In this document: one piece after another, positions 8,817 to 27,482 of the stretch
How the letters are laid out: every line of letters starts with the position of its first letter
Position numbering within the stretch: the first letter of the stretch is position 1
DNA from: a virus
Taxonomy: Duplodnaviria > Heunggongvirae > Uroviricota > Caudoviricetes
Length of the DNA stretch: 31,073 nucleotides
Direction: 5' to 3' (one strand)
IMG/VR virus record: IMGVR_UViG_2602041669_000008
Notes under the pieces: model-generated
Databases searched by the model: none
Told to the model about the DNA's origin: nothing
Seen by the model: only the letters and a program-made list of their open reading frames with translations
Position numbers and translations under genes: made by a program

Positions 8817-8981
8817 ATTGGCAGCCTCCTTAGACGTTGGTATGTAACCACCGCAGAAGAGACCAATCTTGCTGGCGGTGGACTGTACGGAGTTGGCCTT
8901 ACTGGCGTCCAAGGTAACCAGCCTACCCGAAGGTAGCCCCATACAGCCCACCATTGTAGAGGTGTGCGTGTACGCCGATAC

Positions 8982-9125
8982 AAAAAAAAGACGCGAGCGG
9001 CGTCTGTATCGCCTTAGACTTAAGCGGGAGGCCAATCCCGGCACCCGTTTTAATGAGGTGCCTGATAAGCATAAACCGAAAATGCCTCAAGGCGCAAGAG
9101 GTCAGGCTCAATGTAACATCGGTAG
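8982..9125 (-). ncRNA. Candidate c4-like structured leader/antisense RNA upstream of icd-like copy B
   Basis: Begins just below the operator at 9136-9152; hairpins GGCACC/GGUGCC and CGGGA/UCCCG; ends in stem AGACGC/GCGUCU plus U8 (8982-9005); no ORF. Confidence 0.35.
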
Positions 9126-24760: not shown

Positions 24761-25462
24761 TTATTCTGATTCTCGCTCAAAAAATGAGCTGATAAGGGGA
24801 AGCCAATCCTCTGACACTTCGCGAGGTCGCGGTTTGCCGTGGAAAAAGATTATTCGGCAGTCTTTTGGTAATGCCCCATTCCCCCTGGAGTAACGCGCGC
24901 TCGCATATTTTGAACCAGGTTCCACAACATCGGCCTTGTAACTTACAAACCATCCTGGATACAGATCCTGAAATGCTGGTGTATCATCGCCCATAACCTT
25001 TCGTAAGAACCCCTGGTCACCCCAACACTCAGTAGTGACACAACGAGAAATCCAACCTTCCGGATCTTGCCAGAATGAACTCCAGATATGCGCTTTAACA
25101 CTATTTGGTATCCACAGGGCACCGCTGCCACGATATTGTGGATGGTAAAAATCCCTAAGCATGGTGAAGCTGGTTGGTGGATGCTCTAGGATTGGGCGTA
25201 TATCACCGGCAATAACCGTGTCCAAATCCAGATAGAACAGATCATCGGTTATATCCGGTCGGAACAACTCGATTTTCGCCCACCAGCCACGGCACTTTTG
25301 CCACTGGTTGATCAATGGGACAACTTTGACGCCAGGTACATGTAAACGCTTCAGGTCTGTCAGGCAAATAATTTCATAGCCTTTTGGCAGTTGATTAACC
25401 AGCCACTGCACATCGGAAGCGTTATAGTCACCACCAGAGCGAAAAACTAAAGCAATCTTCAT
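24761..25462 (-). CDS. Putative nucleotide-sugar glycosyltransferase-like protein (233 aa)
   Basis: DxD-like motif YLDLDTV with upstream W-rich segment; start overlaps the stop of the phosphatase gene. Confidence 0.5.
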
Positions 25463-26151
25463 GCTGCACCATCACCTTTCACTTTCATCAATGTCAGGTT
25501 TCCGCAAAATACGGCACCAGTGTCGATATACTGCTGATTCCAGAATGTCTTCGGGCTTTTCACCGGAGTGTGACCAAAGATAAAACGATCTGCGCCCGAA
25601 ATTTCGCCACCAATATCATCCATCGAATCACTGATACGCTCGCGCGCCCAGACAACGTTGAAAAGCGGCACCTCCTTACCGAATTGGTATTCATTATCCG
25701 GATAGTCGGCATGGGCTATAACGATAGTTTCTTGCCCGGTGTTCAACTCAATGATATAGGGCAGACGCTTTACCAGCTCCACCAGCGCCCAGGCTAATAT
25801 TTCCTGATCAGTGTCCAGCATGAAGAACCATTGTCCGCCATTCATTAGCCAGTTATTCACGTTGCCATCTGGACTTAACGCATCAATCATCAGCCGCTCA
25901 TGGTTCCCCATCACTGCCCTGAACCAGGGCATCTGCAATAGTTCCAGACATTCGACATTTTCAGTACCGCGATCGATAAGGTCGCCGACCGATATCAGTA
26001 AATCCTGCGCCGGGTCAAAATCCACACGATGGAGTTCGGACATCAGTCTGGTGTAGCAACCATGCAGATCACCAACAACCCAGACATTCCTGTATTTGGT
26101 ACCGTCGATACGGTGATAAATTGTGGGTGCCATCATGTATTCTTCAGCCAT
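25459..26151 (-). CDS. ppp: Ser/Thr protein phosphatase, lambda-PPase-like metallophosphatase (230 aa)
   Basis: Motifs GDLHG, GDLIDRG, GNHE. Confidence 0.85.
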
Positions 26152-26759
26152 TCTTTAAGAGTCATCTGCGGAATACCTCCCATTTTCCCGCATGAAACAA
26201 CGTCAATCCGTTCACGCGCAGACTGGAATAACAAAGGCAGGTGACTTAGATTTTTTGGCGTGCCGCCGGAGTGAACGCGTGGTTCTTGTGTAGCGTCAAC
26301 GCCCACCAGGGCGACATGTTTGAATCCGATATGGAAAGCCAGGTTCAGAGCACCATATGCACTATTGCCGCTGGCAATTTCATTCTCATCTTCGCAAAGT
26401 CCGAAATGTGCGGACCAGCGCCACGCCCACCACTCGGGAGAATTCGTATTTTTTGGCTCCATGCCACGTTCAGCCACACGACGGAAGCACAGAACGCCGT
26501 CTCTGACTTCACGTTCTTTAACATCGGGTAGTGCCATGCAATAACAAACACCACGGCGACGGCGGCCACGACCAACGCGCCGCATATTGTCTGGCGATGG
26601 ATCAAGTGTGAAAAAATAAGAAGCGCGGTTCAGCCAGTCGATGGCCCCATTGACCGCTATAATCGGCACTCCGCGCGGCGCAACAAAGTTTGCGGCGCTT
26701 GGGCCACTGCCGACGATAATAACGCGATCACTGCCTCTAAATTTATTCTTGGGAAACAT
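26133..26759 (-). CDS. Rossmann-like protein with GSGPS motif, DUF115/Maf-like (208 aa)
   Basis: N-terminal [10 protein letters not shown]...IIAVNGA; AGGAG upstream of the ATG. Confidence 0.55.
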
Positions 26760-27319
26760 TGAATTGCACTGCTCCTACTTGCATTCAAAATATGTAAATC
26801 TGCGTGTTTTTTGCGGGTATCCAGGAACTGCTGTTGCCATTTTGAAATAGACACCTGCGTTGGATTCCGTAGTGCTTGAGGGTGCGCGCCATGCCAATGA
26901 AGGCCGTTTTGCAGAGAACAGTCATAGCCGACTAATACCACTACTTCAGCCCCTGATTCAGCAGCCAGACTGATAGCCTGCGCGCCGCTATTTACCCCTT
27001 CCGCCGGTCCACAATATCGCCTGTACTCCAACGAAAATGATTTCGCCGCCGCCAGGTTGGCTGTCACTTTGCGGAATCTCCCTCCCGGTATGGTGGATCC
27101 GTATTGCTTCCACCATGACAAATCACCGGCGTATAAGGCATAAATGTCATCGAACATCTGCCAGGAATTGTTAACCGCGATGATTGAACAGCCAGTTTTT
27201 TCTATAGCAGCACAGTCCTCACGAGTGAGTGACGGACCGCTACCGACACAAAAAACAGTCCTAGTCGCCCTGGGTGGTATGTTCATTCTCAGCTGCAAAT
27301 TCAGCCTCCAGGCGAGCAT
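26657..27319 (-). CDS. Paralog of the preceding DUF115/Maf-like protein (220 aa)
   Basis: N-terminal VFCVGSGPS...IIAVNNS; its 3' end overlaps the downstream paralog by 103 nt in another frame. Confidence 0.55.
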   Translation of the reverse strand: MLAWRLNLQLRMNIPPRATRTVFCVGSGPSLTREDCAAIEKTGCSIIAVNNSWQMFDDIYALYAGDLSWWKQYGSTIPGGRFRKVTANLAAAKSFSLEYRRYCGPAEGVNSGAQAISLAAESGAEVVVLVGYDCSLQNGLHWHGAHPQALRNPTQVSISKWQQQFLDTRKKHADLHILNASRSSAIQCFPRINLEAVIALLSSAVAQAPQTLLRRAECRL

Positions 27320-27482
27320 TCATTTCAGCGATTACAGGGTCCACTACAGCATCTGTTTCCTGTTCATTACGCGGCATGATCGATGCCAGCGATTCATAAT
27401 TAGCCTTGGATGACACGACTATTCTCCCGATGTTAATGTGCGCTATATCAAATGGCGCATATGTACTAATTAATTTATTATT

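Follow-up and report, generated by a model that had tools for sequence, protein, structure and literature searches.

The 103-nt out-of-frame overlap between two genes encoding Maf/MptE-like paralogs in the window (the whole stretch of viral DNA analysed here, 31,073 nt in length) is very probably the native pmgO/pmgP junction of a P1-type phage-plasmid, formed by a same-strand, out-of-frame pair of DUF115 putative glycosyltransferase genes. The overlap is already known, since it is part of the published annotation of phages P1 and P7, and the window sequence is ordinary P1-type DNA. Our comparison of divergent loci adds to that annotation in several respects: judging from the sequences, the placement of the pmgP start inside a conserved motif of pmgO is old and selected, the length of the overlap is mostly neutral, pmgO, pmgP and pmgQ form a module of which fusions exist, and the region is frequently mis-annotated.

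Identity and layout of the junction

Megablast matched this stretch of the window to phages P1, P7, RCS47, SJ46 and other Punavirus records at 98-99% identity. The curated P1 record (AF234172) annotates the two open reading frames as pmgO (663 nt) and pmgP (627 nt), and the P7 record (AF503408) carries the same two as hdmB and hdmC, in each case with the same 103-nt overlap. The likeness to P1 and P7 extends to the genes, both ORF lengths, the overlap, the operon and the C1 operator; there is no difference of substance, and the window departs from P7 by one base within the overlap. Of 5426 complete Escherichia coli genomes, 579, or about one in ten, carry the 1187-nt pmgO-pmgP segment, nearly always on a plasmid.

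The ORF list and the sequence agree on the boundaries of both genes (Table 1), and the coordinates and out-of-frame character of the overlap were correctly given in the preliminary description. The reading frame of pmgP is -1 (+2) relative to that of pmgO. The overlap falls into two parts. Over the core overlap the PmgO side encodes the conserved C-terminal element of its domain, the PmgP side encodes a variable, lower-confidence leader (residues 1-11), and there is no variation at all among 50 P1-like haplotypes. Over the remainder, the PmgP side (residues 12-34) is conserved and includes the beta1-GSGPS loop (residues 12-21), which thus lies inside the overlap.

Table 1. Features of the pmgO/pmgP junction and its operon in the window (positions in the window; all on the minus strand).
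Feature	Position	Strand	Remarks
pmgN	27261..27416	-	51 aa; first gene of the operon; 59-nt overlap with the annotated pmgO start
pmgO	26657..27319	-	Upstream Maf/MptE-like paralog, 220 aa; start 27319 per P1 annotation; stop TAG 26659-26657
A6 run inside pmgO	26807-26812	-	cgcAAAAAAcac
AGGAG	26776-26772	-	12 nt upstream of the pmgP ATG (long spacing); PmgO codons around invariant Ser181-Arg182
pmgO/pmgP common stretch	26657..26759	-	103 nt
Core overlap	26726..26759	-	PmgO residues 188-198 over PmgP residues 1-11
T_TTC_CCA	26756-26750	-	pmgO frame; formal X_XXY_YYZ shape; Phe-Pro in both frames
A_AAT_TTA	26744-26738	-	Heptamer in pmgO frame; only in P1/P7-type sequences
Lineage-specific pmgO read-through tail	26657..26725	-	PmgO residues 199-220 and TAG over PmgP residues 12-34
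pmgP	26133..26759	-	Downstream Maf/MptE-like paralog, 208 aa; start ATG 26759-26757; -1 frame relative to pmgO
ppp	25459..26151	-	Lambda-type Ser/Thr phosphatase; 19-nt overlap with the pmgP end (P1 annotation)
pmgQ	24761..25462	-	233 aa; glycosyltransferase-like (phrog_1962)

It had also been proposed that pmgP possesses its own AGGAG ribosome-binding site. The AGGAG is indeed present, but its independence is doubtful because of its spacing from the start codon, because it coincides with invariant codons of PmgO, and because AGGAG or GGAG at this place is weak or absent in several lineages.

In P1 and P7 the operon lies downstream of the C1 operator and has the order pmgN-pmgO-pmgP-ppp-pmgQ, and according to the P1 annotation the genes overlap at every junction (by 59, 103, 19 and 4 nt). 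The pmgN/pmgO overlap varies in length, from 59 nt in P1 to 41 nt in L106 and 17 nt in L108. The true start of pmgO may be an internal ATG at position 27286 rather than 27319, as residues 1-15 of the annotated protein are modelled at pLDDT <50.

Two observations concern the rest of the window. Rfam matches at 1271-1356, 1425-1477, 8871-8958 and 8984-9061, all on the minus strand, include two full copies of the C4 antisense RNA, one with an a1b1 target and the other beside an isrK-like sRNA, making two immunity-I-type regions within ~8 kb. Positions 1-24500 are only 66-71% matched by P1-type phages, indicating that this part of the window is mosaic.

Intactness of both genes and conservation of the pmgP start

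We fetched 72 P1-like loci, of which 67 (50 haplotypes) are ungapped over pmgO-pmgP; both frames are intact in all 67. Variable sites in the part of pmgO outside the overlap are synonymous in 43 cases and nonsynonymous in 16, and the corresponding counts for the part coding for pmgP alone are 52 and 18, a ratio of about 3:1 for either gene. These ratios indicate that both genes are under purifying selection, as would be expected of an overlapping coupled pair. One P1-like contig (L014, 3719-5399) carries a ~1.7 kb insertion in pmgP after codon 53.

The preliminary description had left three readings side by side: a genuine overlap, a frameshift error and a decaying duplicate. The first is borne out by the annotation of the same overlap in both P1 and P7 and by its retention in 67 of the 72 P1-like loci and in divergent lineages. 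Were the overlap instead an artefact of assembly or sequencing, an indel would have created it from one gene or from two abutting genes. Indel errors or variants do arise in this region, as seen in the related loci L065, L066 and L058 and in a variant at the A6 run of pmgO in the P0002 cluster. However, the curated P1 and P7 genomes, 67 ungapped independent loci and hundreds of complete E. coli assemblies all show the same overlap, the same register recurs in lineages of only 36-50% identity, and no single indel can bring the ...LEAVI end of PmgO and the conserved PmgP motif into a common frame while preserving both. We consider an indel artefact to be excluded for practical purposes, its remaining probability being negligible. 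The P0002 cluster itself comprises 48 database sequences that are frameshifted at the A6 run and end in ...RKKTRRFTYFECK; L066 carries a similar indel, and all of these may be real variants or homopolymer sequencing errors.

A decaying duplicate, that is, a pseudogene paralog whose frame has stayed open by chance, might be suspected from the fact that neither gene is needed for plaques and that pmgO is unannotated in some RefSeq/PGAP records. Against this stand the synonymous excess in both genes, the motifs that are invariant in both proteins across distant homologs, the confident folds predicted by AlphaFold, and the old divergence of the paralogs, which are only ~25% identical. Purifying selection on both genes and the high-confidence models lead us to discard decay as exceedingly improbable, and we proceed from the genuine overlap.

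In order to follow this overlap over longer evolutionary distances, we rebuilt the junction in every locus with adjacent pmgO and pmgP, and analysed 15 lineages with PmgO identity down to 36%. In all 15 the pmgP ATG lies in the C-terminal C-F-P motif of PmgO and in the -1 frame, so that both overlap and register are conserved; the pmgO stop alone differs in position, and overlap lengths range from 37 to 109 nt. The overlap measures 109 nt in L110 and L114, 103 nt in P1/P7, 100 nt in both L116 and L117, 94 nt in L113 and L118, 70 nt in L070/L071/L106, 67 nt in L124, 49 nt in L084/L108, 43 nt in L121, 40 nt in L120/L123/L132/L133, and 37 nt in L122. A further lineage, L125, is an exception: its overlap is only 11 nt long and uses the other frame. 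The start is embedded in the motif (Q/K/T)-C-F-P, read as cA-ATG-TTT-CC, so that the ATG consists of the last base of the codon preceding the PmgO Cys (Trp in L121) and the first two bases of the Cys codon.

The codon before Cys ends in A in 14 of the 14 linked lineages tabulated, regardless of the amino acid encoded (ACA, AAA, CAA, CGA, GCA, CTA), versus none of 18 distinct PmgO homologs that are not linked to pmgP (ACC, ACG, AAG and others). The contrast suggests that a synonymous site is under selection to preserve the pmgP start wherever pmgP follows, although it is partly circular, since the linked lineages were recognised in part by the ATG, and although the number of lineages overstates the independent evidence, since they probably share the arrangement by descent. 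The overlap is not required for function, as both genes occur alone elsewhere and L125 differs.

Most distant PmgO homologs have no adjoining pmgP, and these unlinked homologs also serve as a control for the place where PmgO normally ends. In alignments the conserved core of PmgO reaches C-F-P-R-x-x-L-E-x-x-(L/I), 10-12 residues past the site of the pmgP ATG. Where no pmgP adjoins, the homologs terminate 8-12 residues beyond CFP, for example at ...KIFPRSTIEAEL and ...TCFPRARPEDVL, each directly followed by the stop codon, and P1 PmgO continues for ~20 residues after its domain has ended. The alignment therefore speaks against homologs ending before position 26759, an outcome envisaged in the preliminary description: the PmgO domain extends 8-12 codons further than the point at which the pmgP ATG lies. 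Because PmgO homologs that are free of pmgP end at this same distance after CFP, we regard ~35-40 nt of the overlap as ancestral and selected.

In two prophages, of Citrobacter and Pantoea (L085, 3525-4992; L092, 3543-5007), a solitary PmgO homolog is followed by a different conserved pair, encoding a ~288-aa protein and a ~205-214-aa putative methyltransferase, with stop/start junctions that overlap by 4 nt. This gene set suggests a second module built around a PmgO-type domain.

Overlap length and alternative readings of the junction

We compared the observed overlap lengths with a neutral simulation in which the first 11-12 pmgP codons were fixed and the remainder was recoded synonymously, using the protein and codon usage of each lineage. 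Simulations with the P1 protein or the window sequence gave overlaps of at least 103 nt in 18-22% of cases (for the window, P(sim >= obs) = 0.22), so the length of 103 nt is unremarkable. Over the 15 lineages, with lineage-specific recoding, P(sim >= obs) ranged from 0.10 to 1.0, with a combined p = 0.90. An earlier impression from simulations based only on the P1 protein, that the overlaps are longer than expected under neutrality, disappeared with the lineage-specific simulations. What departs from chance is where pmgP starts within pmgO, not how long the overlap is.

The remaining ~65 nt of the P1 overlap fit the neutral expectation for read-through, and the 22-residue tail is not itself selected. 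Silent or tolerated substitutions in pmgP removed earlier TAG and TGA stops from the pmgO frame, thereby adding this extra overlap. The TAG stop of pmgO in L084/L108 corresponds to TCG in P1, and the TGA stop in L070/L106 corresponds to ACT in P1, by way of a Met-to-Ala change in PmgP. The tail residues arise from reading the conserved PmgP beta1-GSGPS codons with a one-base offset; 'LSS', for instance, derives from I-I-V-G. Among the P1-like loci, the proximal 56 nt of the overlap are invariant, and all five variable sites fall in the distal 47 nt, within the pmgO tail, where four of the five are nonsynonymous in pmgO and three of the five are synonymous in pmgP.

It might be argued that residues 199-220 of P1 PmgO have a selected function of their own, such as contacting PmgP, given that AlphaFold extends the last PmgO helix to residue 207 and that several lineages have similar tails (overlaps of 94-109 nt). 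The tail nevertheless varies freely in length and sequence, and in close relatives (58-70% identity) the stop comes 11-18 codons sooner; since its residues mirror conserved PmgP codons, its observed lengths fit neutral recoding and its polymorphisms are mostly nonsynonymous in pmgO, we consider a selected function of the tail improbable.

The overlap would not be real if the many database entries that place the pmgP start further downstream, at GTG 26669 (Val31) for instance, were right. Large protein clusters are annotated in this way (P0054, 178 aa with 373 members, and P0162), and gene callers likewise chose later starts in L107 and L110. Such a start, however, skips the most conserved N-terminal element of the protein, (A/V)IIV(A/G)SGPS, in which I15, V16, G19 and P20 show little or no variation across 43 homologs and which forms beta1 at pLDDT >95. 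Solitary PmgP homologs, which lack the leader, begin just before this element (MRAIIVASGPS). We therefore hold a later start to be barely credible, and take the ATG inside pmgO as the start of pmgP.

The constant -1 register also raises the question of programmed -1 ribosomal frameshifting at T_TTC_CCA or A_AAT_TTA, which would yield a PmgO-PmgP fusion mimicking a natural one. Frameshifting is worth testing because all linked lineages but one have pmgP in the -1 frame, because the pmgO frame contains these two slippery-shaped heptamers just past the pmgP ATG, and because an in-frame O-P fusion exists in nature. In this form of the idea, a fraction of ribosomes would shift by -1 at T_TTC_CCA or elsewhere in the overlap, producing a fusion beside the separate proteins, with the -1 register fixing the ratio of fused to free subunits of a phage glycosyltransferase-like complex; to our mind this is quite unlikely. 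The heptamers are not conserved, being replaced in L110 (T_TAC_CCA), L113 (C_TTC_CCG), L118 (C_TTT_CAA), L121 and L070/L084, and the conserved CFP motif suffices to account for T_TTC_CCA. Slippage at the FP site would moreover cost PmgO its conserved C-terminal helix, which the natural fusion keeps. The strict maintenance of the ATG by synonymous choice is needless for frameshifting and argues for initiation. A search for stimulatory RNA structure downstream found none beyond that of shuffled sequences (MFE -44.3 versus a shuffle mean of -43.5 kcal/mol, z = -0.24). Initiation at the pmgP ATG within pmgO accordingly remains our preferred reading, and we see programmed frameshifting as very improbable.

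A glycosyltransferase-like module and its relation to known systems

The PmgO and PmgP families match one another over their full length in profile-profile comparison (hhalign probability 97.9%, E 4e-13), indicating that they are genuine but old paralogs; in this alignment the CFPRxxLExxL element of PmgO corresponds to the extreme C-terminus of PmgP. Both proteins match the Pfam family PF01973, MptE-like (DUF115), with scores (23.4 bits for PmgO, 21.0 bits for PmgP) below the gathering cutoff of 34.6 bits, and 43 of 43 PmgP homologs match it at E <= 1 (best 8.6e-7). The AlphaFold model of PmgO has a pLDDT of 86.7, with residues 211-220 at ~57, and that of PmgP has a pLDDT of 95, with residues 1-10 at ~66. 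Foldseek searches with both models gave as best PDB match the Maf glycosyltransferase 5mu5 (probability 1.0, TM ~0.55 over the query), and the PmgP model also matched the archaeal MptE HPPK 8sd5 (probability 0.99) and, weakly, CstII-type sialyltransferases. Both models thus resemble solved PF01973 members, namely the MptE HPPK and the Maf central domain. The description of the pair as DUF115/Maf-like paralogs agrees with these weak Pfam matches, the hhalign homology and the structural match of both proteins to Maf. In PHROGs, PmgO is labelled 'alpha-2,3-sialyltransferase' and PmgQ 'glycosyltransferase'. Searches of PDB sequences with profiles of both families returned nothing useful, and an NCBIfam search gave no match. 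A Kdo transferase, suggested by a faint match of the O-P fusion to Pfam WaaZ_KDO_III, was dropped as a candidate when the match was absent from a scan of 43 PmgP homologs.

Gene order and fusions show a conserved three-gene glycosyltransferase-like module, pmgO-pmgP-pmgQ, that has spread among enterobacterial prophages. A PmgQ homolog lies downstream of PmgP in nearly every related locus (L003, L110, L113-L133), with ppp between them only in the P1 group. The related loci occupy moron positions of lambdoid prophages: the Q/lysis interval, the lysis/terminase interval, or sites among head genes. An in-frame O-P fusion of 376 aa is encoded on a podovirus-like contig (P0051/L003; a single Logan contig), tandem two-domain relatives occur (P0247, P0249), and PmgP-PmgQ fusions are found in P0189 and P0277, such fusions being seen in few metagenomic proteins.

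The first ~35-40 nt of the overlap are obligatory dual coding, with the structured C-terminal element of PmgO lying over the variable N-terminal leader of PmgP. We propose a coupling in which ribosomes translating pmgO would cross the pmgP start and keep it unfolded, and might re-initiate at pmgP after terminating 37-109 nt downstream of it. Translation of pmgO and pmgP would in this way be coupled and both proteins made together, and PmgO, PmgP and probably PmgQ would act as partners in one glycosyltransferase-like module. The likely role of the junction, as inferred from gene architecture and fusions, is the coupled expression of partner subunits. It could be objected to coupling that elongating pmgO ribosomes could hinder initiation at pmgP as easily as help it.

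By CRISPRi, neither pmgO nor pmgP is essential in P1 (PMC10695390). Of the Pmg proteins, PmgC and PmgG alone were detected in the virion, and no plaque defect was seen in 24 of 29 knockouts (PMC9024508); the P1 transcriptome paper mentions only pmgN. The name 'morphogenetic' is unsupported in view of the CRISPRi result, the virion composition and the plaque-normal knockouts, and the pmgO-pmgP-pmgQ module, dispensable for plaques and absent from the virion, has been mislabelled by it.

Gene callers handle the pmgO/pmgP overlap badly, which matters for a region carried by roughly a tenth of complete E. coli genomes. In the RefSeq/PGAP records of P1-like plasmids that we examined (L195, L196), pmgO is unannotated, leaving a 500-nt gap and a skipped locus tag, and PmgP is named 'motility associated factor glycosyltransferase family protein' or 'hypothetical protein'. 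The upstream gene is likewise missing from metagenomic gene calls in L113 and L114, and the cut of PmgP to Val31 in the 373-member P0054 cluster falls past the conserved GSGPS loop. A misspelling in the pmgM note of AF234172, 'norphogenetic', has become the product name 'norphogenetic protein' of PmgO and PmgP homologs in Escherichia, Salmonella, Citrobacter, Enterobacter, Erwinia, Ochrobactrum and other hosts. Knowledge of the native overlap and of the true ends of both proteins allows these pmgO and pmgP records to be corrected.

Among solved structures, the closest relatives of both proteins share with them the Maf-like domain fold (5mu5, PF01973). Maf (motility-associated factor), a flagellin glycosyltransferase that transfers a nonulosonic acid to Ser/Thr of its acceptor, is however a protein of 632 aa with N- and C-terminal flanking domains, whereas PmgO and PmgP (220 and 208 aa) lack these domains and reach a target-normalised TM of only 0.20-0.21. 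Maf genes are linked to flagellin and CMP-pseudaminic/legionaminic acid genes, whereas the neighbours of pmgO and pmgP are pmgN, ppp, pmgQ, pmgM and tail genes; no nonulosonic-acid synthesis or flagellin genes were found in the phage operon. Since they are a third of the size of Maf and lack its genomic context, PmgO and PmgP are treated here as small Maf/MptE-like domain proteins and not as members of the Maf family, with a putative glycosyltransferase role.

Long same-strand overlaps with translational coupling are known from other phages, such as the MS2 lysis gene, which overlaps the coat and replicase genes, and the overlapping genes of phiX174. The pmgO/pmgP junction resembles these in being same-strand and out-of-frame, in extending over tens of bases, and in having the downstream start inside the upstream coding sequence. 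It differs from them in that its products are paralogs of one fold, that most of the overlap length is neutral, and that coupling is proposed from the arrangement of the genes. It also differs in that constraint alternates along the overlap, with the end of the PmgO domain lying over the PmgP leader and PmgP beta1 lying over the PmgO tail.
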